Part shown: piece after piece, positions 10,012 to 60,313 of the stretch | How positions within the stretch are numbered: the stretch's first letter is position 1 | Layout: every line of letters begins with the position of its first letter | Source: an uncultured Methanocellales archaeon | Lineage (GTDB): Archaea; Halobacteriota; JAWCLZ01 | Reading direction: 5' to 3' | Assembly: GCA_964631075.1 (NCBI GenBank) | Contig: CAZVYP010000002.1 | Coordinates: 1-60,956 of the forward strand | DNA: 60,956 nucleotides | Notes under the pieces: generated by a model | What the model saw: only the letters and a program-made list of their open reading frames with translations | What the model was told of the DNA's origin: nothing | Databases searched by the model: none | Position numbers and translations under genes: made by a program

Positions 10012-10381
10012 AAGCCATTTTCAAAAGCTGAACTATGTGGTCATCGTCCAGAGAATAATAAACGATCTTACCATCTTTTCTGTATTTTACCAGCTTCATG
10101 TTCCTCAGAACTCTCAACTGGTGTGAAACTGCGGATACGCTCATGTTTAGCACTTCTGAGATGTCGCAGACGCAGAGCTCTCCCTTGGAAAGTGCATATA
10201 ATATTTTTACACGGGTTCTATCACCCAGGGTCTTGAAAGTGTCACCGAGACTGGCAAAAATATCATCCTCCAGCATTTGCCTCCTCACTGCGCTGACCTT
10301 TTTTTCATTTATGACTCTTACCTGGCAGACATCTTCTCTATTGCTCATAGCTGCACCAATCATAATTGAACAATTACTCAA
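9992..10381 (-). CDS. ArsR/SmtB-family metalloregulator
   Basis: 129 aa with ELCVCDISEVLNMSVSAVSHQLRVLRNMKLV (CxC metal site plus the ArsR HTH). It overlaps the ATPase start by 20 nt. Confidence 0.9.
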   Translation of the reverse strand: MSNCSIMIGAAMSNREDVCQVRVINEKKVSAVRRQMLEDDIFASLGDTFKTLGDRTRVKILYALSKGELCVCDISEVLNMSVSAVSHQLRVLRNMKLVKYRKDGKIVYYSLDDDHIVQLLKMAYEHATE

Positions 10382-10465
10382 ATGTTCAATTGAATAGTAT
10401 ATAAAGCTTTGCAGAAAAAATATGCCTGAATTTACTCGAATCTGAGCTTGCTCGCCTTTTCTCTT

Positions 10466-11764
10466 TCATAAATTGTTTTCAAGCAGCCATTTCCAGAGCG
10501 GTATGAGCTTGATCCTCTGGTTTTTGTATTTTTCAGCTCCTTCCTGATCCCATGTGATCACAAGCATGTTCCTGCATTTGAATTCTCTGCCCGCTTTTAC
10601 CAGCGCGCTCAGCTCTCTTTCTCTGGTGTTAAAGTCCTCTATGCTATAGCAGACCTGTATGAGCTGCGTGATCTTTTCTTTCTCTTTCAAAACGAAATCG
10701 ACTTCTTTGTTGCCGGAGTAAAAGTAAAACAGGTTGCTGTTCAGAGTAAAGTTTCTTCTCACCAGCTCCATTAACACAATGTTTTCCATTAATCGGCTCT
10801 GGCTTTCAACTCCGCTAACAGACATCAAGCCATTGTCAGCAAAATATATCTTGGGAGAAGTTTGCTCTATCTCCCTGTAGGATCTGGAGTATTTTCTCAG
10901 CATAAACAGAATCAGAGAGTCCAGGAAGTACTCCGTATAGGTGTATATCGTGTTTTTGCTGACTTTTATTCCCAGAGATTTGAGGTAGTTGTAGAATTTG
11001 TGGATCGAAAAATGGGTTGACGAGAGGAGGCTTTTGAGGAGCAGTTTTAGAACCTTGATGTTTTTAACTTTATACCTCTCCACCACGTCTCTGTAGATTG
11101 TTACGTCGAGAATTTCCTTCAGGATTTTTTCACGCTCTTTTTCAAAAAAGATGGCCTCAGGGTACCCGCTGATGGTGTACTTTTCGAGAAGGTTGAGGAG
11201 CTTTGCCTTCTGTGAAGAGGAAAGATGTTTATCCACCCTGAAGTCTTTTGCTTTTAAAAATTCTTTGAAGCTGAAGGGATAAATGTAGTAAGGCAGGGTT
11301 CTCCCCCTCAAGCTGGTGGCAATTTCCTTTGAAAGCAGCCTGGAAGACGAACCGCTGATATACACCTGAACGTTTTCACTATCCATGACAGCGCGAACGA
11401 ATTTCTCCCAGCTCTGAACATTTTGAACTTCGTCTAAAAAAAGATAGACTTTTCTGCTTTTATTTTCAGGGTAAATTTCATAAAAAATTTCAATCATGCT
11501 CCTCAAATCTGCTGCCCCGCAGCCGATCAGCAAGTCGCTCTCGAAATTAATGTACAGCACTCTGTTTTTTTCCACCTTTTTTTCCAGCAGCTTTTTCATA
11601 ACCTGGTACATGAAAAATGTCTTGCCTGCTCGCCTTGGCCCGAGTATGGAGATAACTCGTTTTATCGGTGGTTCGACTGCTTCAACGTCTCGCTCTACCA
11701 GATCCGGCAGCTCGCGCTCTTGAAAATCCTTTATTGTTCTTATCCAGATCTCTCGACTTATCAT
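10466..11764 (-). CDS. AAA-family ATPase with DUF4143-type C-terminal domain (COG1373-like)
   Basis: 432 aa with P-loop GPRRAGKT and Walker B LFLDEVQ. The size and layout are typical of the archaeal AAA_14/DUF4143 family. Confidence 0.75.
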   Translation of the reverse strand: MISREIWIRTIKDFQERELPDLVERDVEAVEPPIKRVISILGPRRAGKTFFMYQVMKKLLEKKVEKNRVLYINFESDLLIGCGAADLRSMIEIFYEIYPENKSRKVYLFLDEVQNVQSWEKFVRAVMDSENVQVYISGSSSRLLSKEIATSLRGRTLPYYIYPFSFKEFLKAKDFRVDKHLSSSQKAKLLNLLEKYTISGYPEAIFFEKEREKILKEILDVTIYRDVVERYKVKNIKVLKLLLKSLLSSTHFSIHKFYNYLKSLGIKVSKNTIYTYTEYFLDSLILFMLRKYSRSYREIEQTSPKIYFADNGLMSVSGVESQSRLMENIVLMELVRRNFTLNSNLFYFYSGNKEVDFVLKEKEKITQLIQVCYSIEDFNTRERELSALVKAGREFKCRNMLVITWDQEGAEKYKNQRIKLIPLWKWLLENNL

Positions 11765-25785: not shown

Positions 25786-26982
25786 ATGTTTTTTAGAAGT
25801 ATGTACGACATCAGTAAAGTGCGCATGGATTTCCCGATTTTAAGCAGGGTAATATACCTCGACTGCGCAGCTACGAGCCTGAAGCCAGTGCAGGTTTTAG
25901 AGGCAATGAAAGAGTTTTTCTATGAATACTCGGGCAACTACGGCAGAGGCGCGCACAGATTAGCAAGAGAGTCAACGGAGCGATATGAAAGCGTACGCGA
26001 GAGTGCGGCGAAATTTATAGGTGCCAGGCCAGAGCAGTTTTTCTTCACAAAAAATACCACTGAAGCAATAAATGCGGTAGCATTAGGTCTTGAGTGGCAA
26101 AAAGGCGACCAAGTGATAGCCACCTCCGTCGAGCATCATTCAAACCTCCTCCCCTGGCAGCGATTGCAAAAGCAGGGTGTAAAACTCGAGGTCGTCGAAG
26201 CTGGCAAAACTGGAGCAGTTAGCGCCGGTGCAATCGAAGCTGCTATAAAAAAACAAACAAAACTTATTTCCATTTCTCACGTCTCCAATGCTCTTGGAGC
26301 CACGCAGCCAGTGGAAGAGATAGCAAAAATCGCGCGCGATAGCGGTGCCATGGTGCTCATCGACGCAGCGCAGTCCCTCGGACACTTAGAAGTGAATGTA
26401 AAAAAACTGGGGTGCGACTTCCTCGCATTCTCGGGGCATAAAGGACTCCTCGGCCCTCAGGGTACAGGCGCGCTGTATGCACGCGACCTTTCCCTTCTAA
26501 CCCCGATTTTCGCGGGTGGAGGTGCGGTGCATAACGTTACTGCTTCGAGCTTTAAGTGGCTTGAGTCACCTGCCCGCTTCGAAGCTGGAACACCGAATCT
26601 ACCGGGCATAATCGGGCTTGGTAAAGGCATAGAGTATGTGGAAAAGATCGGTGTAGCGAATATTGGCCAGCACATAGAAAATTTAAGCTCATATCTCGCT
26701 CGAAATTTAGAGAGCATAAAAAACGTGGAGACCTATGGTCCGAATAAGAAACATGGCATTGTTTCCTTTAACATTAAAGGTATTAACTGCCACGATGTGG
26801 CAATGATCCTGGACGAGACCAAAAAGATCTGCATCAGGAGCGGACATCACTGTGCCTCCCTTGCTATGGAATTAATAGGCGTCGAAGGTACGGTAAGAGC
26901 TTCATTTGGTTTATATAACACAAAGGAAGAAGTTGATATTTTAGTAGAAACTATTAAAATCATGGCTAAAGATCTGGTGTGA
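25786..26982 (+). CDS. cysteine desulfurase (class V aminotransferase, SufS/CsdA-like)
   Basis: 398 aa with the PLP-lysine region FSGHKGLLGPQGTGALY and the active-site RSGHHCA. The true start may be an internal Met (MYDISKV). Confidence 0.88.
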   Translation: MFFRSMYDISKVRMDFPILSRVIYLDCAATSLKPVQVLEAMKEFFYEYSGNYGRGAHRLARESTERYESVRESAAKFIGARPEQFFFTKNTTEAINAVALGLEWQKGDQVIATSVEHHSNLLPWQRLQKQGVKLEVVEAGKTGAVSAGAIEAAIKKQTKLISISHVSNALGATQPVEEIAKIARDSGAMVLIDAAQSLGHLEVNVKKLGCDFLAFSGHKGLLGPQGTGALYARDLSLLTPIFAGGGAVHNVTASSFKWLESPARFEAGTPNLPGIIGLGKGIEYVEKIGVANIGQHIENLSSYLARNLESIKNVETYGPNKKHGIVSFNIKGINCHDVAMILDETKKICIRSGHHCASLAMELIGVEGTVRASFGLYNTKEEVDILVETIKIMAKDLV

Positions 26983-27611
26983 ATATGGAAAAAGATATGA
27001 TTCGAACATGCACAAGCCACGGTTACTTCAGGGGAGAGAAGTGCAAATGCGGGGATAACGGGCGGTTTGTGCTATCATCATACAAAGCTGATAAGTTAGG
27101 GAGAATCGTGAGTGGAGCGCTTCGCCATTTTCCACAGGAGCTAGGGCTAAGTGTGGATAAACAGGGCTGGGTGGTTTACGACGAACTGATTAAAGCAGTG
27201 CAAACACGATATCCCTGGGCAAGAGACTTTCACATCAAGGCACTTGTTGAATCCGACGAAAAAGGCAGGTATCAGATAAAAGATGGCAAAATAAGGGCAA
27301 CATACGGGCACTCCATCGACGTTGAGCTGGATCATCCCCTGAATGACCAGCCAATGTTATACTACGGCACGAGTGAGGAAGAAGCAGAGATGATTCTCGT
27401 GTCAGGCTTAAAACCGGTTAAGCAGCGCTATGTTCACCTGAGCAGGACAATCGAAAATGCGGTTACCGTTGCAAACATTCACACCGACAAACCCATAATC
27501 GTGACGGTAGACGCAAAGGGAGCGAGCGAGAGCGGGATAAAAATTATGAAAGTCGGAGACATATGCCTCTCAGACCCGATACCCGCGAATTTCCTGAGCA
27601 TAAAAACATAG
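26979..27611 (+). CDS. kptA: RNA 2'-phosphotransferase (Tpt1/KptA) with N-terminal Cys/His extension
   Basis: 210 aa with LRHFPQELGLSVDKQGWV, YGHS and VHLS motifs. About 35 extra N-terminal residues carry C-x2-H...C-x-C. It overlaps the upstream stop by 4 nt. Confidence 0.85.
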   Translation: MNMEKDMIRTCTSHGYFRGEKCKCGDNGRFVLSSYKADKLGRIVSGALRHFPQELGLSVDKQGWVVYDELIKAVQTRYPWARDFHIKALVESDEKGRYQIKDGKIRATYGHSIDVELDHPLNDQPMLYYGTSEEEAEMILVSGLKPVKQRYVHLSRTIENAVTVANIHTDKPIIVTVDAKGASESGIKIMKVGDICLSDPIPANFLSIKT

Positions 27612-30260: not shown

Positions 30261-30392
30261 TCATTGCCCTTAATATTAATTCTAGCAGCATATACTAAAA
30301 CACTTTCTCCTGATGAGTTAAGAACGGTTTCCCAAGTCCCGTATGGAAAGAATATAAATAATATTAAACTAATTTATATTTTTGAGCAAAAT

Positions 30393-30848
30393 ATGGCAGA
30401 TAAAGTGGAGAAAGAAAAACCATTATTCGTAAAAACTTGTCCCTGGTGCCACTGGACCGTTATAGACCAGCTAGATGTGTTTGAGCTCCCCTATTCCATT
30501 TGCGAGAAATGTGGTAAAGAGCTCGAGATAAGGGATGAGAGAGAAATTCTGGTTGAATTCAAGATGTTCGGAGAAGCTGATGAACTTATCAAGCAGAATG
30601 TCGAAGCTCTCACCCCTCAGCAGAGAAAATGCGTGCTTGGAACTGCTGTAAACCATGAAAAAATAGAGATATACCTCGACAACCTCCTGAGGCTAACAAA
30701 AGAAGATACAGGCGCACTGATCTTCATGCTCGAGCGAATTATGCTGCACGAACTGGCTCACGTGCTTGCCAGGACCATTCAGGAGGAGGAAATCCATAAA
30801 TTTACAGATAAGGCAATGGTAATGAGACTCCAAATTAAGCCAGTTTAG
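30393..30848 (+). CDS. zinc-ribbon + HExxH mini-metalloprotease-like protein
   Basis: Track ORF 30264..30848 is probably overextended. The ATG at 30393 gives MADKVEKEK..., with CPWC...CEKC (a zinc ribbon) and IMLHELAHVL (a zincin HExxH). Confidence 0.5.
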   Translation: MADKVEKEKPLFVKTCPWCHWTVIDQLDVFELPYSICEKCGKELEIRDEREILVEFKMFGEADELIKQNVEALTPQQRKCVLGTAVNHEKIEIYLDNLLRLTKEDTGALIFMLERIMLHELAHVLARTIQEEEIHKFTDKAMVMRLQIKPV

Positions 30849-30865: not shown

Positions 30866-31426
30866 TTATGTGCCACCTTTTTTAAATCGATCCAGAAACT
30901 CAAGTGCGCCCTCCTCGTCAAAGGAGAAATTCCAGAAGTCGATTTTTACATCTGCATCCAGGCAGTGAATGTTTCCACATTCTTTGATCATGCCTATCTT
31001 TGAAAAAAAGTTCTCCGGAGCTGAAGCTTCATCATTAACCCATCTTGAGATCAGCTTGACACGCCCATCAAAACCATTTATTATGGATTGCTCCACCGCA
31101 TCCCTCATAAGCATGGTTCCGACTAATCGCATCTCTCCCTTTGCAACTGATTCGATGCAGTTTATATAAAGACAGCCCTTGCTTGTGTCGAGAGAAAACG
31201 CATATGCCCCAAGGACTTTGCCACTCTTCTTTTCTTTCAATATTCTGAGCTTATAGCTGCTACTGGCTATCTCACCCCATCCGAAAACAGTGTTCTTCCA
31301 AGAATCGCTGTAAGCTAAAAATCTTATATCTTCCCATCCAGCCCAGTCAATTTTTACTTCAATAGGCTTACCTGTTTTTTTATGCACAACGCGATACTCG
31401 GAATACAAGCTTAACGCTCCATTCAA
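30866..31426 (-). CDS. hypothetical protein (possibly GNAT-fold)
   Basis: 186 aa. A central stretch (LGAYAFSL...LYINCIESVAKGEMRLVGTMLMRDAVEQSIINGFDGRVKL...FFSKIGM) loosely resembles the acetyltransferase core. This is a weak call. Confidence 0.3.
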   Translation of the reverse strand: MNGALSLYSEYRVVHKKTGKPIEVKIDWAGWEDIRFLAYSDSWKNTVFGWGEIASSSYKLRILKEKKSGKVLGAYAFSLDTSKGCLYINCIESVAKGEMRLVGTMLMRDAVEQSIINGFDGRVKLISRWVNDEASAPENFFSKIGMIKECGNIHCLDADVKIDFWNFSFDEEGALEFLDRFKKGGT

Positions 31427-31629
31427 ATTCCTTTAAATATAATGATTGTTCATACAATATATAGTTTTCCAAAATATTTTTATTTAACAATTTAAAAATT
31501 AAAAAAAACAACTTTAATACAAAAATATGCTCTTTTATGATATATTAATGAAACCGTTCCCGAGCTTGCACTAAGATGGTCCCAGATTTTGGCAATAGTT
31601 TCTCATCTCTGCAAGATAATGGCTGTCTC

Positions 31630-33339
31630 TCAGGTCTTCCATGCATCGGTGATTTCTTTATCTAATTGCTCATACATGTCCTTTCTTGCTATCTCCATCA
31701 TCCTTGCTCTCTTTGTCACATAGCTCTCGACTCTGCCAAGCACTATTTTCGGTATATCTTCATTTTTCTCAACGTTGTAGAAGCTGACATTTGCTTTCAA
31801 GCCAACATTTTCCATAAGCTCTTCAACATACTCATTCAACCCAAGGTAGACTAGGGTTGCTCTGTTCTCAATTTTAGAAAAATAGTCGATCACATTCGGC
31901 AGATTTGTTATCGCGATATCGCTTATCATTAAGATATCAGGAGACCTTGTTTTTGTGGTGCTTCTCAGCGCGTCGATTTTGCTCAAATTCACAGCTGTAC
32001 CCCCACCGAAGTACTTGCAGAGAGTTTCATAGATTTGCTTTCTATCCCGTGTATACTCCAGAGCGAGCTCGTTACCGCCGAATGCGTCACTGTAATTATA
32101 TACTGCAACTCTGGCTCCATTTTCAAGGTACGCATTTGCCGCGCAGAAGCTGCCGAGCACAGCGTAAGATAAAATCTCTCTGGGATTTGCCATGCTGCCT
32201 GAGGAATCGATTATGATCAGGCAATCAGGTATGCCACCCAGGGCGCCATGCGTCTCGCCTTCTGCTTTTCTCCAGATTTTAGTAACACCGGGCAAAATCC
32301 TGCCAAAAGACCCCCAGATATTGATATCATGAATCGGCTTTTCGATTTCCCACTCTGAAAGCGAATATGGATAGAGAGAGCCATCTTTTTCAAGCGGCAA
32401 TTTCTGAACAGGAATTGTATAGTTCTCCGCCAGCTTTTGATAGAAAAGCACGCTTGCATCTATAAGACTTCCTCTTCCGATCCCCATTTGAACTTTTTTC
32501 TCGATATATTTGTGATACACCGGTGCAAAGTCTTCCTGTTTCTCCGGATTCTTACCATTCTTTTCCGCATCAACATCGCCTATCAAGCTTTCAAGATCTC
32601 TGACAATTTCTGTGAATTTCTTTGGATCTCCAATTCGCTTTGCAAAATCGCGTAGACTGCTTTCCATCTCTGATTTTGAATATCTGCTGAAGCCGCTTGT
32701 TGAAAGAGTACTCGCATCGCACTGCAGCAGTTCTTTTATATATCTTGCGAATCGCTTGCTTTCCACTTCCCATCTTGCCTTATTTGAGTAGTTCAGCGAG
32801 GCAAGCTTTTTTGTGATAGGGTGCTCTCCAACGCCCAGATCTATTTTCCAGAGCTCCTGATAAACCGAGCAGATGGCTTTTTCGAGCTCAGACTTATCCA
32901 TATTCAAGTAAAGCTCTGGTATGGCCGTTTCCATCTGGGTAATGCAGTATGTATTAGCTGCGATGTCCATGAAGTAATCGCTTGCTTTTACGGCCATCTC
33001 ATGGTTTTGAAGCACTTCCTTTACAGATGCATAAATCAGCAGATGAGTTGTCAAATCGAATGGACAGAAGCAGTGGTGGGATAGCTCGTGATCGAGCAGT
33101 GCTTCGATAATCAGATCCCGATCCATTTTTTCCGCAAGTTTATCGCAGAATTCTTTCCCGATTTTTATCTGCTTGTTCTTCATCTGAATTGAGGAACGCC
33201 CTGGCAGTGATGTAACTTCAGGCTTTGGCATAGCAGGGTATAGATGTTTTTTCCTCAGCTCTGGCCAGATCTCATCTATTATAATCCGGTACTGAAGCCG
33301 CACTATGTCTTTTTTCATTGCATCCAGCGGGTTATCCAT
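31630..33339 (-). CDS. zincin-like (HExxH) + von Willebrand A domain fusion protein (DUF2201-type architecture)
   Basis: Track ORF 31630..33393. I prefer the ATG at 33339 (MDNPLDAMKK), which gives an 8-nt overlap with the upstream stop. The N-terminal half has LLDHELSHHCFCP. The C-terminal half has the vWA MIDAS motif DCLIIIDSSGSM, plus later GGGT and LMISD. Confidence 0.75.
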   Translation of the reverse strand: MDNPLDAMKKDIVRLQYRIIIDEIWPELRKKHLYPAMPKPEVTSLPGRSSIQMKNKQIKIGKEFCDKLAEKMDRDLIIEALLDHELSHHCFCPFDLTTHLLIYASVKEVLQNHEMAVKASDYFMDIAANTYCITQMETAIPELYLNMDKSELEKAICSVYQELWKIDLGVGEHPITKKLASLNYSNKARWEVESKRFARYIKELLQCDASTLSTSGFSRYSKSEMESSLRDFAKRIGDPKKFTEIVRDLESLIGDVDAEKNGKNPEKQEDFAPVYHKYIEKKVQMGIGRGSLIDASVLFYQKLAENYTIPVQKLPLEKDGSLYPYSLSEWEIEKPIHDINIWGSFGRILPGVTKIWRKAEGETHGALGGIPDCLIIIDSSGSMANPREILSYAVLGSFCAANAYLENGARVAVYNYSDAFGGNELALEYTRDRKQIYETLCKYFGGGTAVNLSKIDALRSTTKTRSPDILMISDIAITNLPNVIDYFSKIENRATLVYLGLNEYVEELMENVGLKANVSFYNVEKNEDIPKIVLGRVESYVTKRARMMEIARKDMYEQLDKEITDAWKT

Positions 33340-34099
33340 AGATCCCTGTCTTCTCCTTACCCCGGTAAATCTTACCGGCTTTAATTTCACCAAGGCTCTC
33401 GATTTTACCTTTCACCCAGATTTCCCCTCCAATCATATTGCTCCCCAGATTGGCACCTGCATCGCCCTCTATTATTATCCGCCCGGATCTCATGTTCTGC
33501 CCTGCCGAATCGCCAGCGTTGCCTTTTACCAGTATTTTCCCATCAGACATGTTTAATCCTGCACCCGCACCCGCGCTGCCTTCCACTACAATCTCACCCG
33601 ATTGCATGCTTTCTCCTAGCCAGTTGCCGGAATTGCCTCTTATTAAAATTTTACCTCCATTCATACTGCTTCCAACTCTATCCCCCGTGCTGCCTTCTAC
33701 AATTATTTCACCCCCTTGCATGTAGTAGCCGAGGTAGTGTCCGGCGTCTCCCTTCAGGGTTATTTTCTTATTGTTATTCTTGCCGAGGTAGTTTATTCTC
33801 TCCCCGAGCTCGATCTCGAATTCGCTGTCCTCTGACCCAACGATGAGGAGCGAAAGAAATTCACCTGAGTGCTTGAAGTCCCGATCTTTTACTTCATATG
33901 GATATTTTGAGAAGTCGCGGATTGCCCGCGCGCTGTGACTCCTGACCCCCGGGGTTTTGAAGATCTCATAGATGTAGTACAGCTCAACATCGGCATTCCA
34001 TTTTTCAAAATCGTCAATAACTTCCTCAACGCCGGTTTCCCGCTGGGATATTTCCTTACCCTTAGGGCTGAAATCCTTGAATCTTTCAAGTATTCCCAT
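33332..34099 (-). CDS. stand-alone GXGXG-repeat right-handed beta-helix protein (GltB C-terminal / FwdC-like fold)
   Basis: 255 aa. A ~115-aa unique N-domain is followed by six ~19-aa repeats: GDAGHYLGYYMQGGEIIVEG / STGDRVGSSMNGGKILIRG / NSGNWLGESMQSGEIVVEG / SAGAGAGLNMSDGKILVKG / NAGDSAGQNMRSGRIIIEG / DAGANLGSNMIGGEIWVKG. Confidence 0.8.
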   Translation of the reverse strand: MGILERFKDFSPKGKEISQRETGVEEVIDDFEKWNADVELYYIYEIFKTPGVRSHSARAIRDFSKYPYEVKDRDFKHSGEFLSLLIVGSEDSEFEIELGERINYLGKNNNKKITLKGDAGHYLGYYMQGGEIIVEGSTGDRVGSSMNGGKILIRGNSGNWLGESMQSGEIVVEGSAGAGAGLNMSDGKILVKGNAGDSAGQNMRSGRIIIEGDAGANLGSNMIGGEIWVKGKIESLGEIKAGKIYRGKEKTGIYG

Positions 34100-35420
34100 T
34101 CTTAATCACATAGCTCTTGATTTCACGGTAAACCGGGTGGTCCCCCTGCACAAGCGTCTCAATTCCTGCTTTGCCTTCTTCAACGTAATAGGCCGCTTTG
34201 AGAGCGCTCTTGATATTATTTTTCTGCTCGGCGTAGCGATTGAAGACCTCGCCAACCGCTTTTTTTGCAAGGAAAATAGTGGCAGGATCGTTTCTGATTT
34301 CCTTTTTATATCGCGAGAGAAAAGTCTCGCTCCAGCGAATTCGATGAGCGAGAGTAAACGGAGCCATTTCCCGCACGTGCTCAATGCTGACCTCTTTTTC
34401 CCCTAAAAACCATGCGAGGGCTCGCGAGTATTCCTTTATGGAGAGCGGTACTCTGTTGGAAGCACAGTTTTCGATCGAGTGGCAGAGGTATCCTACGAAG
34501 TGGCAGCCTTCCTCGCACATCTGATTTGTCCTCTTCTGACCATAATTATGGCAAAAGCTCAGCTCGGCTATTAAGGTCAGCAGGAATGCAGTTGCGTCCT
34601 CGCTCAGCGGTATGCCCCTGACGTTCTTCCTTATTTCCTCTCTCTGCTCATAGCCCGGGGTTTCAATCCCGAGCTCTCTTTTCAACCTAGAGGCATATTT
34701 TGTAGACATATCCCTGATACTTTTGATTTTCTCTTCATATTCCACTTTGCTTTTTAGTATTCTGTTGATTTCCCTGGTGAGCTGGAAATCCCTTATGATC
34801 TTTTCAGCTTCCTTCTTCTGTCCATCTATCTCCGAGGAGTAAACCGCACCGGGATATTTGGACTCGACTTCAACGTCGAAGCGATCCAGCAGCGGCGGGA
34901 GAAGATCGGTCGTGCCCCTGTCCGAGTAATTCGCAGTTGCAAACAAGCAGTACTCCTCGTTCAGCAGCAGCTCGTCGAGGTACCTCCAAATACCGGTGTC
35001 GCAGCCCTTCAGGATTAAGCTCTGCTTCGAAGGCGGCAGGCGGTTGATTTCGTCAACTATCTTGGGCTGAAGCTGGGTGAAATTCGACCAGATCACCTCT
35101 TCCTGCCCGGCATTCAGCCTGCCGAGGTCTGGTCTGCCTTTAATTTTCTCCTCGGTCTGCTCGGGGTGTCCCTCCACCTCGGAGTCCCAGATTGTATCGA
35201 GCGGGAGCTGGTATACCAAGCAGGAGACATACTCTGCACCAGTGGTCTTACCGAGCCCTGGCTCGCCGACGATTAACTCTTTTCCCCCGATTAACGCTGT
35301 GATCAGGCTTAAAAGCAGGGTTGAGTTATATTTTTTTTCCTGAACTGCCATATCCGGTATGTTGAAATACAGGTTTTCTCCGATGAAGGAGTAGAGCTCT
35401 TCGATTTGCTTATTTTCCAT
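34086..35420 (-). CDS. MoxR-like AAA+ ATPase with Cys/His-rich insert
   Basis: 444 aa with Walker A VGEPGLGKTT, Walker B IVDEINRLPP (a MoxR hallmark), sensor-1 FATAN and LLDRF. Residues 290-319 read CH-x10-C-x3-CH-x5-CH-x4-C. Confidence 0.8.
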   Translation of the reverse strand: MENKQIEELYSFIGENLYFNIPDMAVQEKKYNSTLLLSLITALIGGKELIVGEPGLGKTTGAEYVSCLVYQLPLDTIWDSEVEGHPEQTEEKIKGRPDLGRLNAGQEEVIWSNFTQLQPKIVDEINRLPPSKQSLILKGCDTGIWRYLDELLLNEEYCLFATANYSDRGTTDLLPPLLDRFDVEVESKYPGAVYSSEIDGQKKEAEKIIRDFQLTREINRILKSKVEYEEKIKSIRDMSTKYASRLKRELGIETPGYEQREEIRKNVRGIPLSEDATAFLLTLIAELSFCHNYGQKRTNQMCEEGCHFVGYLCHSIENCASNRVPLSIKEYSRALAWFLGEKEVSIEHVREMAPFTLAHRIRWSETFLSRYKKEIRNDPATIFLAKKAVGEVFNRYAEQKNNIKSALKAAYYVEEGKAGIETLVQGDHPVYREIKSYVIKNGNT

Positions 35421-35461
35421 GGACTATCGACTTGTGGCTAATACTATATCGCAAATGGTTT

Positions 35462-36319
35462 TTAAATCTTATCCAGCTCATTTCTGATTTTCCTGCTCAC
35501 GTTCGAAATGCTGACCTGGGAGATGTTCAGCGATTTTTCGATTTCCCTCTGCGATAGCACTTTATTTGAGCAAATGTAAATCACGGCTGCAGAAAGCACA
35601 GCCGGGTTATGTCCGCTTGGCTCTAATTTGCCCAGAATTTCTTTAGCCTGACTTTCAATGTTATACCTGTTTATGCTGAGATCCTCGTTGTTCCTTGCCA
35701 GCACCATCATCTGAGCTTCGATATATTCGGCAGGAGTCATCCTCTGCTTTATACCTGTTATCTTTCTGGCAACTGCGAGGTGACTCATCTTCAAATCGAA
35801 TTCCACTATGCAGCCATTTTCATCGCACGCCAGTTTGAGCGCGAGCTCCACCATTTTTTCATGGGAATACTTCCTGAACTTTTTATTATCCTTCAGGCAC
35901 GCAAAAATTCGCCTGGCATCGAATATCATTGCTGCTTTTACTTCCTCATCAAGAATAATATTTTCAAGCTTCTGGTAAAACTGGCTTTGTTTGCAATTAT
36001 CGCAAATGCCAAGGGCAAAAACATTGTATTTAAAATTATTTATAGTCTCTAAAAAATGCATTCCTGCGTCAGCTTTTGAGATCTCCAGATCGCACACCGC
36101 GCAGCGCTCACTATAAGTATAGAATCTCTCATAATAAACATCTGCTACCTTCCCCACATAGTAGCCCAAGTCGCACGCATCACAATACACGCTGAATCCA
36201 TTTATGCCTCTATCAAGATTTTTAAGCTCTCTACCGCATTTCTGACATCTTTCATAATCCTTTTGAACCAGGGTTAACCATTTTTGCTTCTCGATACCGC
36301 CCATTAACATTATGTTCAT
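35462..36319 (-). CDS. divergent TFIIB/TFB-like protein with multi-CxxC N-terminus
   Basis: Track ORF 35462..36430. The start is ambiguous, and I prefer the ATG at 36319. The C-terminal half shows two cyclin-like repeats. The second ends NPAVLSAAVIYICSNKVLSQREIEKSLNISQVSISNVSRKIRNEL, a TFB-type HTH. The N-terminus has CQKC..CDAC, CAVC and CDNC pairs. Confidence 0.6.
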   Translation of the reverse strand: MNIMLMGGIEKQKWLTLVQKDYERCQKCGRELKNLDRGINGFSVYCDACDLGYYVGKVADVYYERFYTYSERCAVCDLEISKADAGMHFLETINNFKYNVFALGICDNCKQSQFYQKLENIILDEEVKAAMIFDARRIFACLKDNKKFRKYSHEKMVELALKLACDENGCIVEFDLKMSHLAVARKITGIKQRMTPAEYIEAQMMVLARNNEDLSINRYNIESQAKEILGKLEPSGHNPAVLSAAVIYICSNKVLSQREIEKSLNISQVSISNVSRKIRNELDKI

Positions 36320-36411
36320 GACCGGTGACTTATATCTTTTACTCACTTTTTTCAATAGATTTATATTGAAGAAGGACATTTTTCCTGTTAAAATGGGGGA
36401 GAAAGTGCAAT

Positions 36412-37056
36412 ATGGCAACCCAGCAAACAAAGTTCACGCGAAGAAGAGTCCTCGAATATTTGCTTTTTGAGGACATGACGACAATTCAGCTATCGAAACT
36501 ACTTGGCATCAGAGAATTTGCAATGCGCCGCCATCTCGAACTGATGGAGAAGGAAGGTCTCGTAACCTATAACTTTAAACAAATCGGAATGGGGCGACCC
36601 AAAAAAATGTATTCACTTACCGAAAAGGCACGGGATACATTTCCAAAGCGATATTCTCTACTCTCAAACCTGATGATTGAAAACATGATCAAGCAGAGCG
36701 GAAAAGAATACGCTAGAAATGTGCTTGTAGGAGTATCGGAAGAGATAGCAAAATACTACGTGTCACAAGCTAAAGACCTTGAAGGAAGATTAAAAGAATT
36801 CACAAGGTTCCTTACAGAATTCGGCTGCTTTGCCTCATATTCGAAAGAAAATGACATTTACTTACTCTTTAAGCGCAACTGCGTGTTTTCTGATGTAGCA
36901 AAGCAATATGAAGATATAATGTGCGAAGTGGACGCTCAGGCAACAATAAAAGCCCTTGGAAATGTTACGCTGATTCGGGAGATGTGCCTAGGCAAGGGCG
37001 ACAGAATGTGCAAATACGTGATCATACCTCTTGAAACGGAAGAAAAAGGGCAATGA
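36412..37056 (+). CDS. wHTH (ArsR/DeoR-like) regulator with Cys-rich C-terminal sensor-like domain
   Basis: 214 aa. The N-terminus RRVLEYLLFEDMTTIQLSKLLGIREFAMRRHLELMEKEGLV...GRPKKMY is a winged helix. The C-terminus CFASY...CVF...CEVD...CLGKGDRMCKY resembles V4R/methanogen-output-type domains. It is divergent from the TFB-like gene. Confidence 0.65.
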   Translation: MATQQTKFTRRRVLEYLLFEDMTTIQLSKLLGIREFAMRRHLELMEKEGLVTYNFKQIGMGRPKKMYSLTEKARDTFPKRYSLLSNLMIENMIKQSGKEYARNVLVGVSEEIAKYYVSQAKDLEGRLKEFTRFLTEFGCFASYSKENDIYLLFKRNCVFSDVAKQYEDIMCEVDAQATIKALGNVTLIREMCLGKGDRMCKYVIIPLETEEKGQ

Positions 37057-56666: not shown

Positions 56667-57020
56667 GTGACCTTTCACAATAAGCGTAAGAACCCTCATC
56701 AGACCTATCAGATTCTCACGGATTCGGGATTAAGATCGATCACAAAAAGCTATGCCAGACTATACATCATGGACCTGCTCTATCGAGAGCCACAGGGGCT
56801 AACCTCTACAATGATCTATTGCAATTACAAGGATAAACTCCAGGAAAGTGAAGCCGGCGAGGATTCGGCGAGATCTCGATCTAATATAATAGATCACCTC
56901 AATGAATTAGAGGGAGAGAACATAATTCAAAAAGGGGTTTTCAAGCAATATATACTCACGGAAAAAGGGCGCAAGGTCTTTGAGATAACAATGAAACTCG
57001 CCAGGAAAATAAGGCAATAA
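56667..57020 (+). CDS. hypothetical winged-helix-like protein flanking the cassette array
   Basis: 117 aa (GTG start in the track). LYREPQGLTSTMIY...NIIDHLNELEGENIIQKG looks like an HTH plus wing. It is convergent with the minus-strand array. Confidence 0.4.
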   Translation: MTFHNKRKNPHQTYQILTDSGLRSITKSYARLYIMDLLYREPQGLTSTMIYCNYKDKLQESEAGEDSARSRSNIIDHLNELEGENIIQKGVFKQYILTEKGRKVFEITMKLARKIRQ

Positions 57021-57049
57021 AAATCAAATTCCTTTTTCCCGCTCTGAAT

Positions 57050-57254
57050 TTATCTGGATAGAGTTAAGTAATCGCTCTCGATTTTGGCTCTCCTTCTGTT
57101 CCGGCTATTTTTAATATCGTGCCAGACTCCTTTTAGTGGAAGGTATCGAGTCCGACCTTTTGCCAGACATTTTCTTTCGTTCTTCTTTAACTGAGCTCCT
57201 CGCTTTTATACTGGGTCTTATTCTTCTTTGAATATTCATAATATTTCTTGTCAT
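57050..57254 (-). pseudogene. decayed copy of the TM-less Trp-repeat gene (B3-type)
   Basis: Three frames each carry a piece. They read MTRNIMNIQRRIRPSIKARSSVKEERK, then ENVWQKVGLDTFH, then KGVWHDIKNSRNRRRAKIESDYLTLSR-stop. The last two align with B3 (KTWSDVKVGMGSYTYDAQRVWEDIKADRERRKSKSAQSYLVEDV). Confidence 0.45.
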
Positions 57255-57280
57255 TAACTTCTCACCCCTGCAATTTTTTC

Positions 57281-57604
57281 TCAATATTTGCCCGTCAGAT
57301 ATGCCTCAATGTATCTGCCTTTTTTTCTGCTGTTACCGTCTTTCAGCTCGTACCATACTCTTCTGGCGCTGGAATCGTAGGTATCAACTTTATTTTTTGT
57401 GTATCTCCACCTCCTCTGTGCTCTGACTTCATGTTTTACTGTTCTCCACAGCCAGTTTATCTTCAGGTTGTTTCTTACACTTCTCCAGATCGCGTTGTCG
57501 CCTCTGAGGAGTCCGGCTTTCTGCTTTTTGATGAGCAATTCGATTTCTTTGATTGCTATTTTTCGGCCAATTGACAGACCTGTTATTATGCCGAATAAAA
57601 TCAT
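57281..57604 (-). CDS. cassette A, TM-anchored Trp-repeat protein (A2)
   Basis: The ATG at 57604 overlaps the A1 stop (TAATG); the track starts at GTG 57622. Sequence: MILFGIITGLSIGRKIAIKEIE..., with W boxes AIWRSV, RRWRYT, RVWYEL and the tail EAYLTGKY. Confidence 0.65.
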   Translation of the reverse strand: MILFGIITGLSIGRKIAIKEIELLIKKQKAGLLRGDNAIWRSVRNNLKINWLWRTVKHEVRAQRRWRYTKNKVDTYDSSARRVWYELKDGNSRKKGRYIEAYLTGKY

Positions 57605-57744
57605 TAATAAGATGTCCTGCACTTTCTCACGCCCTTTTTCTTTTTCTCGAAATTCATTGCGACTTTGATTTTAGTTAAAACTCGCCCAAATTCGATTCCT
57701 AAGAGGAAACCGAGCCCAAACGCGAGCAATAATCCAGCATTCAT
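57604..57744 (-). CDS. cassette A, glycine-zipper mini membrane protein (A1, 46 aa)
   Basis: Below the track cutoff. My translation is MNAGLLLAFGLGFLLGIEFGRVLTKIKVAMNFEKKKKGVRKCRTSY. It shares the GxGxxxGxxxGR plus basic-tail design of B1, C1 and D1. Confidence 0.6.
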   Translation of the reverse strand: MNAGLLLAFGLGFLLGIEFGRVLTKIKVAMNFEKKKKGVRKCRTSY

Positions 57745-57790
57745 CAGATATCTCCACTTTTTCTCTAATTATCAGTTATATTTGTCACAG

Positions 57791-57806
57791 AATAAAATTA
57801 GTCGTC
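57791..57806 (-). promoter_or_regulatory. conserved 16-nt cassette box GACGACTAATTTTATT (cassette A)
   Basis: On the + strand it reads aataaaattagtcgtc. It lies ~50-65 nt upstream of the A1 ATG. The same 16-mer is present before B1, C1 and D1. Confidence 0.6.
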
Positions 57807-57980
57807 AATATTTTGAAAATGTTTATCATATTTATTGAATTATTTATTTTATTTTAAAAAATAAGTTCATAAATTTAATGTTATGTTTATAAATTAAAAT
57901 ATTATTCAAAAATATAAACAATTTCTCAGAATATATACACTTTAGTCACTCTTTCGTGACTTAATACCTACCGGATGCGA

Positions 57981-58226
57981 TTAAACATCTTCTACAAGAT
58001 AGCTCTGTGCAGATTTACTCTTTCTCCGCTCACGATCAGCCTTTATATCTTCCCAGACTCTCTGAGCATCATATGTATAGGAACCCATACCAACTTTTAC
58101 ATCGCTCCAGGTCTTGTTTACCTTCAACTCACTTCTCGTTAACTCCCACCGGCGATTGACTTTGAACCCCCTCCTTAATTTTTTCCATACCGTATTTTCT
58201 TTAACGGTTACATTTTTTACTGCCAT
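57981..58226 (-). CDS. cassette B, TM-less Trp-repeat protein (B3)
   Basis: 81 aa with W boxes TVWKKL, RRWELT, KTWSDV, RVWEDI and the tail QSYLVEDV. GGTGA lies 7 nt upstream of the ATG. Confidence 0.6.
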   Translation of the reverse strand: MAVKNVTVKENTVWKKLRRGFKVNRRWELTRSELKVNKTWSDVKVGMGSYTYDAQRVWEDIKADRERRKSKSAQSYLVEDV

Positions 58227-58237
58227 ATTTTTTCACC

Positions 58238-58594
58238 TCAATTTGAGATCAAATACTTGCTTGAAAGCTCTCGCTTTCTGCGCCTCATAGCTATGTTAAC
58301 GTCGTTCCAGGTTTGAAGTGCTTTCATATCGTAGAAAATTAAATCTCTTTCTGTAGACTCCCAGATTCGATTTACTTTCAGACGATTCTTGGAACCCTCC
58401 CATCTTCTGCTGATGTTCAGGTTACTTTTAAGCTCGTTGTATGCGTTTTGAAACTTTATGCACTCCCACACCCTATTTCTTGGCACAATTTCTCTTTTTG
58501 CAGATCTGAACATCATTTCCACTTCTTTAACCGCAATTCTGTGACCAAGACTCAAACCTGTTGCAACCCCCAATGCAAATAGCACCAGAGTCAT
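58238..58594 (-). CDS. cassette B, TM-anchored Trp-repeat protein (B2)
   Basis: The ATG at 58594 overlaps the B1 stop (ATGA); the track start is 58600. Sequence: MTLVLFALGVATGLSLGHRIAVKEVE..., with RVWECI, RRWEGS, RIWEST, QTWNDV and the tail SKYLISN. Confidence 0.68.
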   Translation of the reverse strand: MTLVLFALGVATGLSLGHRIAVKEVEMMFRSAKREIVPRNRVWECIKFQNAYNELKSNLNISRRWEGSKNRLKVNRIWESTERDLIFYDMKALQTWNDVNIAMRRRKRELSSKYLISN

Positions 58595-58737
58595 CTGCAT
58601 GCTTTCACTTCCTGGATTCTTTTTTTCTTCAATCTCGATTCGTAAACCAGAGCAAGCTTTAGCTTGGTGATGAGCCTGCCCAGGAATGCACCCATTACAA
58701 GTCCGGAGCCAATTGCAAGTAAATAGGCTTCTTCCAT
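58591..58737 (-). CDS. cassette B, glycine-zipper mini membrane protein (B1, 48 aa)
   Basis: Below the track cutoff. Sequence: MEEAYLLAIGSGLVMGAFLGRLITKLKLALVYESRLKKKRIQEVKACR. GGTGA lies just upstream of the ATG. Confidence 0.65.
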   Translation of the reverse strand: MEEAYLLAIGSGLVMGAFLGRLITKLKLALVYESRLKKKRIQEVKACR

Positions 58738-58785
58738 TTTTTCACCAATCTTATATCTCTAAATTTGACTCTGTTTGGAAAGGGG

Positions 58786-58801
58786 AATAAAATTAGTCGT
58801 C
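58786..58801 (-). promoter_or_regulatory. conserved 16-nt cassette box (cassette B)
   Basis: Identical 16-mer, ~50-65 nt upstream of the B1 ATG (58737). Confidence 0.6.
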
Positions 58802-58924
58802 ATTAAAGATTGTTATCTGTAAAATGTAACATAATCACTACTTATTTCTAAAAATTCTTTTAAAAAAACGTAATTATGTATTTTTCTAAAAAATTTTATA
58901 AATAAATAAAAAATATGTTTAAAA

Positions 58925-59320
58925 TTACAACTCTTGGTCAGAAGTCTCATCTGTCAAATATTTGCTGGATAAATCGAATTTCCCTGGCTTTCGGGAAACC
59001 TTGATTTCCTCCCAGTTTGCAATTGACTTGAGATTATATCCATCAAGTCCCGTTCTTACACCCTGCCAGACCCTGTTTATTTCCACACTTCTTTTTGCCT
59101 CATTCCAGTCCTTGTTAACCCTGTATTTTTTCTTTAAATCTCTCCAGGTTTTGTTGGACTTGAAACTATTTCTGACACTCAGCCAGACCCTGTTCCCCCT
59201 GACCTTGCCACTTTTAGCAAGGTTAAACATAATTTCTACTTCTTTCATCGCAACCTTGCTTCCAACAGTCACACCGCCAACCGTTCCAGCTGCAAATAGA
59301 ATGAGAACTGTTTCAATCAT
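58925..59320 (-). CDS. cassette C, TM-anchored Trp-repeat protein (C2)
   Basis: The ATG at 59320 overlaps the C1 stop (ATGA); the track starts at GTG 59329. Sequence: MIETVLILFAAGTVGGVTVGSKVAMKEVE.... Using the numbering of the track ORF that starts at 59329, Trp sits at residues 49, 62, 75 and 88 (13-aa period), then 106. The tail is SKYLTDE. Confidence 0.7.
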   Translation of the reverse strand: MIETVLILFAAGTVGGVTVGSKVAMKEVEIMFNLAKSGKVRGNRVWLSVRNSFKSNKTWRDLKKKYRVNKDWNEAKRSVEINRVWQGVRTGLDGYNLKSIANWEEIKVSRKPGKFDLSSKYLTDETSDQEL

Positions 59321-59463
59321 CTTACGCACACTCCCTTATCTGCCCTGCGTTTCTTTAATCGCCACTCGTAGATCAATGCGAGTTTTAACTTTGTAATAAA
59401 TCTGCCGAGGATCATTCCAAATGCAAATCCCGAGCCTATGGCAACAAGATATATGTTTTCCAT
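59317..59463 (-). CDS. cassette C, glycine-zipper mini membrane protein (C1, 48 aa)
   Basis: Internal ATG of track ORF 59317..59532. Sequence: MENIYLVAIGSGFAFGMILGRFITKLKLALIYEWRLKKRRADKGVCVR. GGTGA lies 6 nt upstream. The upstream part of the track ORF is the conserved leader, not coding. Confidence 0.68.
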   Translation of the reverse strand: MENIYLVAIGSGFAFGMILGRFITKLKLALIYEWRLKKRRADKGVCVR

Positions 59464-59530
59464 ATGCGTCACCATCAACGTCTTTTCTACAAATAAACAT
59501 ATATTAAAGCTCAAAATAAAATTAGTCGTC
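59459..59530 (-). repeat. 72-nt perfect repeat copy 1 (promoter + leader + start codon of C1)
   Basis: Base-for-base identical to 60309-60380, checked in 10-mers: catatgcgtc accatcaacg tcttttctac aaataaacat atattaaagc tcaaaataaa attagtcgtc. Confidence 0.95.
59515..59530 (-). promoter_or_regulatory. conserved 16-nt cassette box (cassette C)
   Basis: Identical 16-mer, 52-67 nt upstream of the C1 ATG (59463). A TATA-like TTTAATATAT lies between the box and the ATG. Confidence 0.6.
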
Positions 59531-59734
59531 ATTAAACAAATTATATTTTAAAAATAAACATAATTTTCACTTATTTTTCAAAATTTCTATCTTTTTTAAA
59601 AATATATTAAATTTATTTAGTAATTATGTATTTAAGATGAATTTAAAATAATTTTTCAAAGAATTACTAAAAAAAATAAACTATTCTATAAAAAAATAGT
59701 AATTTTGTTTTATTGCTAGTTATGTTTTATCAAA

Positions 59735-60148
59735 CTACTTTTTGTCAGATGTTTGATTAACCAGGTACTGGCCGGAGACATCGAATCTATCCTTCTTCTG
59801 CTCAAATCTTATCGCCGACCACTTTTCACTTTGTTTCTCCCAGCTCTTATTTGCAGTTGCACGATAATCCTTTACATTACGCTTTACGCTATTCCACTTA
59901 TCGTTTTTGCCAAAGTCGTTCTTAACCTCATTCCAGCCCCTGTTAACCCTGTAGCTCTTCTTCACAGAACTCCATGTTTTATTCTTCCTGAAGCCAGACT
60001 TAATGCTCTCCCACTTTCTATTGCAGCGAGTTCTTCCACTCCTCGCCATGGCGAACATTATTTCCACTTCCTTCATCGCAACCTTGCTTCCAATCGTCAG
60101 GCCACCGGCAGCACCTGCCGCGAATAGAATCAAAATTGTTTGCAACAT
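59735..60148 (-). CDS. cassette D, TM-anchored Trp-repeat protein (D2)
   Basis: 137 aa. Sequence: MLQTILILFAAGAAGGLTIGSKVAMKEVE.... Trp sits at residues 46, 59, 72 and 85 (13-aa period), then 103 and 110. The tail is GQYLVNQ. GGAGGT lies ~9 nt upstream of the ATG. Confidence 0.7.
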   Translation of the reverse strand: MLQTILILFAAGAAGGLTIGSKVAMKEVEIMFAMARSGRTRCNRKWESIKSGFRKNKTWSSVKKSYRVNRGWNEVKNDFGKNDKWNSVKRNVKDYRATANKSWEKQSEKWSAIRFEQKKDRFDVSGQYLVNQTSDKK

Positions 60149-60154
60149 ACCACA

Positions 60155-60313
60155 TCAACCTCCTTCGACCTTTACAGTTTCAGCCCTAATCCGAGCTTTC
60201 TTCTTCAACCGCGATTCATAAACCAGGGCAATCTTCAGCTTAGTAATCAAACGACCCATAAAAGCACCAAACACCAACCCACACAACACAGCCAACACAT
60301 AAACATTCTCCAT
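60155..60313 (-). CDS. cassette D, glycine-zipper mini membrane protein (D1, 52 aa)
   Basis: Internal ATG of track ORF 60155..60364. Sequence: MENVYVLAVLCGLVFGAFMGRLITKLKIALVYESRLKKKARIRAETVKVEGG. Its leader is identical to that of C1. Confidence 0.68.
   Translation of the reverse strand: MENVYVLAVLCGLVFGAFMGRLITKLKIALVYESRLKKKARIRAETVKVEGG

Follow-up and report, generated by a model that had tools for sequence, protein, structure and literature searches.

A predicted MoxR-like AAA+, GXGXG beta-helix and zincin-vWA gene trio found in Methanocellales and bacteria, accompanied in the archaea by TFB-like and SufR-like genes

The window analyzed here is a 60,956-nt contig stretch from an uncultured Methanocellales archaeon (assembly GCA_964631075.1, contig CAZVYP010000002.1), and the feature under study, at 31630-37056, is a compact block of five genes. 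Three of them, referred to below as the trio, encode a MoxR-like AAA+ ATPase, a GXGXG beta-helix protein and a protein that joins a zincin-type HExxH domain to a vWA (von Willebrand factor type A) domain; the other two encode a TFB-like protein and a SufR-like regulator. Homologous loci are denoted L001-L099. The genes and the motifs within them are the following:

31630..33339, minus strand: zincin + vWA protein, 569 aa, with a helical HExxH N-domain, a linker and a C-terminal vWA domain
33076-33090, minus strand: HELSH motif of the N-terminal zincin domain
32194-32208, minus strand: DSSGS, the metal ion-dependent adhesion site (MIDAS) motif of the C-terminal vWA domain
33332..34099, minus strand: stand-alone FwdC-type GXGXG right-handed beta-helix protein, 255 aa (Pfam PF01493), with a short N-terminal domain
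33443-33748, minus strand: six beta-helix coils, residues 118-219, G-x-x-G-x-x-x-G with a period of 19
34086..35420, minus strand: MoxR-like AAA+ ATPase, 444 aa (Pfam AAA_5 and AAA_lid_2, PDB profile search)
35244-35267, minus strand: Walker A of the AAA+ protein
35040-35060, minus strand: Walker B of the AAA+ protein
34464-34553, minus strand: lid insert of the AAA+ protein with five Cys
35462..36304, minus strand: paralogue of TFB/TFIIB fold, 280 aa, in which a two-repeat cyclin-like core comes after two tandem Cys4 zinc ribbons
~35993-36247, minus strand: four invariant CxxC pairs making up the two Cys4 ribbons (alignment of homologues)
36412..37056, plus strand: ArsR-type winged helix-turn-helix (wHTH) regulator with a C-terminal Cys4 sensor domain, SufR-like (Pfam HTH_5, 9.6e-6)

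The gene order on the minus strand is TFB-like, AAA+, GXGXG and zincin-vWA, with the wHTH regulator transcribed divergently on the plus strand (the list of open reading frames (ORFs) gave 35462..36430(-), 34086..35420(-), 33332..34099(-), 31630..33393(-) and 36412..37056(+)). A 41-nt gap (35421-35461) lies between the TFB-like and AAA+ genes, 14 nt (34086-34099) are shared by the AAA+ gene and the GXGXG gene, and an 8-nt overlap joins the latter to the vWA gene, given a vWA start at ATG 33339, which is the start used by the archaeal homologues. This overlapping or abutting arrangement suggests translational coupling within the trio. The first-pass annotation of this DNA had listed the five genes with their motifs, the gap and both overlaps, all of which are borne out by the ORF list and the translations, where GEPGLGKT, IVDEINR, the six GXGXG coils, HELSHH and DSSGSM can be read directly.

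Relatives of the vWA protein are numerous, with more than 670 at the level of protein clusters, three of them Methanocellales-type at 74-77% identity and hundreds at about 43%, the source names of the latter pointing to Thermodesulfobacteriota and other Deltaproteobacteria. When each species was represented by a single genome, scanning gave at least 200 loci with a vWA relative, the best 80 of which were examined in detail. Nearly all of these 80 belong to Thermodesulfobacteriota, in addition to three Methanocellales metagenome-assembled genomes (MAGs); the taxa represented are Syntrophaceae, Syntrophorhabdus, Desulfarculaceae, Desulfobacteraceae, Desulfatiglandales, Binatia, Latescibacterota, one Spirochaetales genome and the three MAGs, so that nearly all of the 80 loci come from lineages known as mainly anaerobic. 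When the window proteins were used as tblastn queries, the AAA+, GXGXG and vWA genes were found in this order on one strand in all loci with enough upstream DNA (AAA+ in 68 of the 80 loci and GXGXG in 72, the remainder being cut by contig ends), and the collinearity extends over about 70 genome loci. The association of these three genes proposed in the first-pass annotation is thus met far beyond this genome. The same search found the TFB-like and regulator genes in Methanocellales loci only, both being absent from all bacterial loci. The conserved unit is three genes (AAA+, GXGXG and zincin-vWA), not the four of the operon or the five of the block as first described, the TFB-like and HTH genes being confined to a single Methanocellales lineage.

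The recurrent neighbors of the trio in bacteria are Lon, an HD-domain protein, guanylate kinase, YicC, UvrA, and FtsJ-like and other methyltransferases, housekeeping genes that place the trio in the core chromosome rather than in a defense island. Lon adjoins the trio in 15 of the 80 loci. In L003-L008, which belong to one bacterial sublineage, an STT3-type oligosaccharyltransferase gene with two type IV pilin-like genes stands upstream of the trio, and genes for Lon protease, an ArsA-HSP20 fusion ATPase and a small AF_1253-family protein stand downstream.

The AAA+ protein passed the Pfam cut-offs for AAA_5 (24.5 bits; cut-off 22) and AAA_lid_2 (35.9 bits; cut-off 22.7), but not that for AAA_3 (PF07726), by which membership in MoxR proper would be assigned (16.3 bits; cut-off 27); even weak AAA_3 matches were obtained for only 11 of 28 AAA+ orthologues. 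The profile of these 28 orthologues found 2r44 as its best match in the PDB (E 2.9e-4), which we take to be a Cytophaga MoxR-family protein (the title of the entry is merely “Uncharacterized protein”), followed by the lids of Mg-chelatase ChlI/BchI. The NCBIfam chelatase models matched the lid only, with scores far under their cut-offs. Bacterial orthologues share 49-56% identity with the archaeal protein, both Walker motifs and the remaining AAA+ motifs being invariant, and the mean column identity of the alignment across the two domains of life is 65%. Two inserts are characteristic: GHPEQTEEK, conserved among the orthologues between Walker A and Walker B, and the lid insert with its five conserved Cys (C290, C302, C306, C313 and C319), which is partial or missing in distant relatives. 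With Walker A and B, the Arg-containing DRFD motif, the insert and a chelatase-type lid, the protein shows the features of the MoxR/chelatase (helix-2-insert) group in the broad sense. Because AAA_3 is sub-threshold, 2r44 and ChlI are the nearest structures and both the GHPEQTEEK and the Cys inserts are conserved, the alignments and profiles identify it as MoxR-like in this broad sense and as a distinct subfamily marked by the GHPEQTEEK insert. The MoxR-type assignment made at first therefore holds broadly (AAA_5, AAA_lid_2, 2r44/ChlI) and fails for MoxR proper.

For the 569-aa protein, the AlphaFold model (from a 45-sequence alignment) shows a helical N-domain (residues 1-210) at a predicted local distance difference test score (pLDDT) of ~90, in which three short strands precede the HELSH-bearing helix, and a low-confidence linker (residues ~256-368) between the N-domain and the vWA domain. 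When the full-length model was compared to the PDB with Foldseek, the vWA part alone was aligned, to vWF A domains (A3), TFIIH p44, Rpn10 and NorD (9qhe_G), and the Pfam model VWA_2 remained sub-threshold (21 bits; cut-off 27). The MIDAS residues are present in 88-91 of 91 distant representatives (D378 in 90, S380 in 91, S382 in 90, T448 in 88 and D474 in 90), which together with the fold matches identifies a vWA domain. The zincin signature was traced in the same representatives, with H84 in 88, E85 in 81, H88 in 86 and D/E125 in 89, the last of these standing 37 residues past the second His of HExxH, in a later helix. Judged by this family-wide conservation of HExxH and a distal acidic ligand, the N-domain is a genuine zincin-type domain, and the fusion of an HExxH zincin with a vWA domain, as first read from the motifs, is upheld by the 91 representatives and the Foldseek matches. 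The linker also carries near-universal residues (Y300, S344, G346, P350 and W356), and W330 is conserved as well.

The distribution of the glutamate indicates that HExxH is ancestral in the wider family (81 of the 91 distant representatives) and was lost in an abundant bacterial clade. In the Thermodesulfobacteriota clade the motif reads D-H-[G/A]-x-x-H-Y, the closest bacterial orthologues carrying Gly or Ala at the position of the HExxH Glu, and in this clade H84, H88, C92, D125 and C132 are invariant. In a neighbor-joining tree (distance-based and without support values) the Methanocellales clade stood with two other Glu-bearing sequences beside, not within, the Glu-less bacterial clade.

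Sequence and profile searches with the N-domain gave no family match in Pfam, NCBIfam, PADLOC or the PDB. Its own profile, searched against 1.84e9 representative proteins, retrieved 312 clusters, and nearly all full-length matches were proteins of 430-630 aa with the same layout of N-domain and vWA. DUF2201-type proteins combine an N-terminal putative metallopeptidase with a C-terminal vWA-like domain and are encoded beside MoxR ATPase genes, a layout like that of the adaptor of the trio beside its AAA+ gene, yet the two are separate sequence families: DUF2201 (PF09967) and DUF2201_N (PF13203) had no whole-protein match at E<=0.01, nor any match at E<=10 to 14 N-domains, and a single distant relative (P0226) gave a sub-threshold PF09967 match (E 0.0018). 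The DUF2201-type architecture named in the first-pass annotation was consequently abandoned, neither model matching the window protein or its orthologues. An identity with CobT was likewise rejected, the Pfam models CobT and CobT_C being without a match to the zincin-vWA protein. Full-length structure matches were obtained in BFVD, to phage proteins named CobT-like (the top match) or VWFA, and these were weak (template modeling (TM) scores of 0.22-0.32).

The protein encoded between the AAA+ and zincin-vWA genes belongs to the GXGXG family (PF01493, 5.8e-18, 65.5 bits; cut-off 32.5), and in a profile search of the PDB it matched FwdC/FmdC chains at 1e-31 (8rja_C) to 1e-16 and glutamate synthase (Fd-GOGAT) at 4e-8. 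The stand-alone helix of six repeats recognized earlier is therefore sound (PF01493, six coils and the FwdC structure match). It shares the GXGXG coil repeat with FwdC/FmdC and with the C-terminal domain of glutamate synthase, but it is encoded between AAA+ and vWA genes, has a different N-terminal domain and a variable coil number, and stands without Fwd or GOGAT partners adjacent to it; neither fwd nor fmd genes appeared in those archaeal and bacterial loci whose flanks were annotated. Both FwdC models remained below their cut-offs (TIGR03122, E 1.2e-32, 113.2 bits against 130.65; NF042910, 86.9 against 340). The number of coils differs between lineages, L097 (4125-4664) having one clear GXGXG coil, bacterial orthologues four and the window protein six, while the N-terminal region and the C-terminal end, G-x-I-x-x-L-G-x-I-x-x-G-K-I-Y, are kept in all compared proteins. 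A variable coil count is expected of a spacer of adjustable length, and because the coil number differs in this way the beta-helix, as a third structural subunit, may act as a scaffold or spacer.

The trio is, by these profile and model comparisons, a widespread and unannotated family, which falls outside MoxR proper, DUF2201, CobT and FwdC; by the scores of the sequence models, its two archaeal neighbors likewise fall outside TFB and SufR (see below). The suggestion of an undescribed MoxR-like/vWA system with a GXGXG partner has accordingly stood, with no match to a functionally assigned chelatase or activase family. In the literature library searched, no paper joined GXGXG or FwdC with vWA or MoxR, and the combination of MoxR, vWA and HExxH gave one unrelated review only.

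Among described systems, the closest in layout are NorQ/NorD, CbbQO, CoxDE and RavA-ViaA, in which, as in the trio, a MoxR/chelatase-type AAA+ gene adjoins a vWA gene with a complete MIDAS, and both kinds of locus are chromosomal. The likeness to NorD is further seen in the vWA model, which matches 9qhe_G, and in the linker before the vWA domain, which recalls the essential linker or finger of NorD (PMC13036017). The trio differs from these pairs in its 444-aa AAA+ protein with a Cys-rich lid insert and an AAA_3 score under the threshold, in the N-terminal HExxH domain of its vWA protein, in the FwdC-type gene between AAA+ and vWA, and in that no client (nitric oxide reductase (NOR), Rubisco or carbon monoxide dehydrogenase (CODH)) is encoded nearby. 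In NorQD (PMC13036017) and CobSTN (bioRxiv 10.64898/2026.07.21.739949) a MoxR-like hexamer engages a vWA adaptor, a finger or shaft of which enters the pore of the ring, and ATP hydrolysis remodels the linker of the adaptor and thereby the client on the far side.

We consider it about evenly balanced whether the trio forms a three-subunit, ATP-driven machine for protein remodeling or processing of the MoxR-like AAA+/vWA kind, acting on a client that is not encoded nearby. The prerequisites visible in the sequences are intact AAA+ motifs, a complete MIDAS, a conserved linker and tight gene packing, and from these we infer a physical complex and ATP-driven remodeling within it. The AAA+ protein would be the motor and the 569-aa protein the adaptor, the vWA domain of which would grip an acidic residue of a partner or client through the metal of the MIDAS, while the conserved linker could be the counterpart of the finger that NorD inserts into the pore or of the CobT shaft (PMC13036017; bioRxiv 10.64898/2026.07.21.739949). 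The N-terminal zincin domain would then act on the captured client, probably by cleavage in this archaeon, because its HExxH is intact, and the beta-helix would be the third subunit. The role would be to mature, repair or check the quality of a specific client, which may be a metalloprotein of anaerobes. Such a role, analogous to those of NorQD, CbbQO, CoxDE and CobST, is most likely, and it is preferred over defense because of the housekeeping context, the cross-domain conservation, the mainly anaerobic lineages, the Cys clusters and the SufR-like neighbor.

A more specific version of this explanation is metal insertion of the chelatase type, as by CobS/CobT or BchI/BchD, in which the His/His/Asp(/Cys) site of the N-domain would deliver a metal to a cofactor or apo-enzyme and the beta-helix would be the substrate-side subunit. 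Class I chelatases (CobS/CobT/CobN and BchI/BchD/BchH) resemble the trio in consisting of a motor, a vWA adaptor and a third subunit, in the ChlI/BchI-like lid of the motor (which here also matched a cobaltochelatase model), and in an adaptor composed of an N-domain, a flexible linker and a C-terminal vWA domain; the three-component layout parallels that of CobSTN in particular (bioRxiv 10.64898/2026.07.21.739949). The top BFVD match carries the name CobT-like, Cys clusters are conserved in the AAA+ lid, a SufR-like regulator adjoins, and the retention of H84, H88, C92, D125 and C132 in the bacterial clade that lost the Glu suggests metal binding without catalysis. However, the BFVD scores are low, the CobT and CobT_C models fail to match, the chelatase models score far under their cut-offs, and the third subunit is a beta-helix of 25 kDa in place of the 140-kDa CobN/BchH; neither a large subunit of that type nor tetrapyrrole genes were seen near the annotated loci. 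The N-domain of the trio, unlike that of the chelatases, bears a peptidase-type HExxH…D/E signature, and the Glu, which most family members keep, speaks for hydrolysis and not for delivery of a metal. We therefore regard metal insertion as unlikely, though it deserves to be kept in view.

The first-pass annotation had also raised a defense-like reading, in which a signal would set the AAA+/vWA switch, the zincin protease would be released against a cellular or invader target and, in the archaeon, transcription would be reprogrammed through the coupled TFB. MoxR-vWA cores with peptidase effectors have been proposed as conflict systems: the ternary systems of Kaur et al. 2020 (PMC7159879) comprise a MoxR and vWA core, VMAP as the third component, and effector domains. 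Metallopeptidase effectors are rare among these, glutamate synthase, DUF2201 and TFIIB are not mentioned, and the architecture of the trio is not described in that paper (PMC7159879). In the archaea the block is confined to one lineage, and one MAG has a transposase adjoining it. Among distant relatives the content of the middle slot varies, and their loci include numerous genes without annotation, a transposase or a protein resembling a phage family. PADLOC (PADLOC-DB v2), on the other hand, matched none of the four proteins of the operon (a resemblance, to Csa3-type HTH domains, was seen for the regulator's generic wHTH alone), and VMAP third components were not seen, no search with VMAP models having been made. 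The AAA+ protein was without a match in 50,697 phage records and had two weak partial matches (24-29% identity) in 72,556 plasmid records. The bacterial trio lies among housekeeping genes with synteny kept within lineages, the conservation of the AAA+ protein across domains is atypical of fast-evolving defense genes, and the supposed effector has lost its catalytic Glu in the largest clade. A conflict or defense module thus appears improbable to us. The placement in a defense island is not supported, in view of the absence of PADLOC matches, the housekeeping flanks and the lack of a phage relative of the AAA+ protein, and a signal-activated protease as the general activity is countered by the Gly or Ala in place of the HExxH Glu in the closest bacterial orthologues.

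The distant loci L089, L090/L091, L092, L093 and L099 have AAA+/zincin-vWA pairs with an intact HExxH among largely unannotated, co-directional genes. A transposase stands beside the pair in L092, L093 encodes a protein matching phrog_12057 and MTBMA_p00010, and L090 has an acidic, halophile-like composition. A PHROGs search of the distant loci returned almost no matches. These loci (L089-L093, L099) may be mobile elements or viruses of archaea.

Several observations weigh against a remodeling and processing machine as set out above. The catalytic Glu is lost in the most abundant clade, so that proteolysis cannot be what the trio does in all lineages, and the zincin domain may serve only for binding or for holding a metal. 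The AAA+ protein falls short of AAA_3, the model for MoxR proper. The middle slot between AAA+ and zincin-vWA is occupied in distant loci by an unrelated protein of 187 or 219 aa, or is empty, and this variability, together with the mobile- or island-like look of those loci, also fits a conflict system. ORF clustering of the neighborhoods of the 80 loci revealed no further family in more than 15 loci that could be taken as the client. Finally, the association of the TFB-like and regulator genes with the trio is exclusive, but it is known from a single Methanocellales lineage and rests on synteny.

As to the first of these two genes, a Foldseek search with the model of the TFB-like protein gave 13 matches at E<=0.001 (lowest E 9e-5), all of them chains of TFIIB/TFB-containing complexes; the comparison with Pyrococcus TFB (1ais_B) gave a TM-score of 0.54 over 193 columns and a weak profile match (E 0.035). 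The zinc-ribbon part of the model is of low confidence. There was no Pfam TFIIB match, and the NCBIfam TFIIB model NF001658 reached 18.7 bits against 384. On the structural model, the call of a TFB fold with an atypical multi-CxxC N-terminus is right, as the Foldseek matches and the four invariant CxxC pairs show, yet by the thresholds of the sequence models the protein is not a TFB member. The second Cys4 ribbon occupies the place of the B-reader/B-linker region. Sulfolobus TFB3 is not known to have the cyclin core, whereas the TFB-like protein keeps a two-repeat cyclin-like core and has this second ribbon. Both are lineage-specific proteins of TFB fold with a non-canonical layout and plausibly specialized regulators (PMC6101594).

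In the divergent regulator, the four Cys (C157, C171, C192 and C200) are invariant, including in two SufR-annotated relatives, and the HTH_5 match together with these Cys agrees with the wHTH, Cys-rich, sensor-like protein described in the first-pass annotation. The SufR model TIGR02702 scored 72.6 bits (E 3.5e-20) against a cut-off of 178.8, and no suf genes are adjacent in the window; by these comparisons the regulator is SufR-like, not SufR. The TFB paralogue and this regulator may place the trio under redox, Fe-S or metal-dependent transcriptional control.

Among 5.8e9 clustered proteins, six homologues only were found for the TFB-like protein and six close ones for the regulator. Every contig whose context could be read runs from rpS15 through the oppositely oriented HTH gene and the TFB-like gene to the AAA+ gene, the regulator gene lying between rpS15 and the TFB-like gene in every context read (L001/L010, L011, L094-L096), and the TFB-like gene sits 32-66 nt upstream of AAA+ on the same strand in the window, L001/L010, L009, L011 and L094-L096. 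The TFB paralogue with two zinc ribbons beside the trio is thus, as far as these searches reach, unique to one lineage.

It is a serious possibility, which we rate somewhat below even, that the five-gene block is not one system, the trio being self-contained and the TFB paralogue and the SufR-like regulator being unrelated, lineage-specific neighbors retained only by the ancestry that a few close relatives share. All bacterial loci do without the two genes, and with about six homologues each, in one lineage and one syntenic context, their association has to be counted as one event in evolution. The conserved TATA-like box within the 41-nt gap points in the same direction and suggests separate transcription of the trio. 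On the other side, the TFB paralogue occurs nowhere else among the 5.8e9 proteins, its distance and orientation to AAA+ are held in all loci read, and its link to the trio is kept although the DNA downstream of the trio has been rearranged (a transposase gene and CoA-transferase genes in L001).

The elements that bear on the transcription of the block are the following:

36305..36411, no strand assigned: divergent intergenic region of 107 bp, a candidate promoter/operator
35445..35450, minus strand: GATATA, a TATA-like box with TTAAAAAC before it, located ~27 nt upstream of the ATG of the AAA+ gene
31470..31545, minus strand: T-rich tract with runs of T5-T8 on the coding strand, a candidate archaeal terminator 3' of the vWA stop

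The start of the TFB-like gene is most likely the ATG at 36304 (280 aa) and not 36430, because all six homologues begin at the equivalent position in the alignment. There would then be no overlap with the HTH gene, and a divergent intergenic region of 107 bp would precede the latter. An alignment of the window, L001 and L011 revealed a conserved block in this region, CCCCCA-TTTAA-...-AAATGT...AATATAAAT-TATTGAAAA, which is a candidate for a promoter and operator. The GATATA box and the preceding TTAAAAAC are invariant in four of four aligned archaeal loci; the box is a possible internal archaeal promoter, and the trio may therefore have a promoter of its own. The T-rich tract was read as a candidate terminator that would end the unit. 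Scans with Rfam and for tRNAs found no RNA features in the window.

Other genes lie near the block. A 194-aa protein (30264..30848, plus strand) has an N-terminal CxxC...CxxC zinc-ribbon-like motif and an HExxH of its own (MLHELAHVL), with weak Pfam matches to Zincin_1 and Peptidase_Mx1 only, and is found at 65-68% identity in related Methanocellales MAGs, near the module there too (L001, L010, L011). Directly downstream of the vWA gene and on the same strand, 30866..31426 (minus) encodes a 186-aa protein without a match in Pfam, NCBIfam or PADLOC, which is present near the module at 62% identity in L001, L010 and L011. In L001 (MAG GCA_038850285.1) a DDE_Tnp_1 transposase gene (10024..10578) is located just 3' of the vWA gene, between the module and the gene of the 186-aa protein, and two CoA-transferase genes, absent from the window, stand between the module and the HMG-CoA reductase gene; these insertions indicate that the DNA downstream of the module was rearranged among close relatives. 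The HMG-CoA reductase gene of the window is adjoined by an ordinary gene for an RNA 2'-phosphotransferase of the Tpt1/KptA family (26979..27611, plus strand; Pfam 1e-29). The G+C content is 0.33-0.38 at 2001..6000 and 57001..60956, compared to a window average of ~0.45-0.49.

Few AAA+ machines are as little understood as the MoxR-like AAA+/vWA pairs, and for NorQD and CobST mechanisms are only now emerging. The trio would add a new variant, widespread in that it occurs in at least 200 species genomes and in over 670 protein clusters, in which the adaptor has a zincin domain of its own and a FwdC-type beta-helix of variable length is the fixed third partner. It also marks a gap in annotation, with no Pfam or NCBIfam model for the zincin N-domain and matches to generic AAA+ models only for the AAA+ protein. 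The natural clades with and without the Glu could help to separate proteolytic from non-proteolytic roles of the adaptor. For the Methanocellales, one may go further and suppose that a hitherto unrecognized family of ATP-driven processing machines, shared across domains, has been wired to a TFB with a double zinc ribbon and to a Cys4 redox or Fe-S sensor, the TFB serving either as a dedicated initiation factor or as the cleaved client, a proposal that we regard as a long shot. If functional, the exclusive association with the TFB paralogue would connect an AAA+ machine to the basal transcription apparatus, and if the TFB were the client, captured and cleaved by the machine, basal transcription in an archaeon would be switched by proteolysis.

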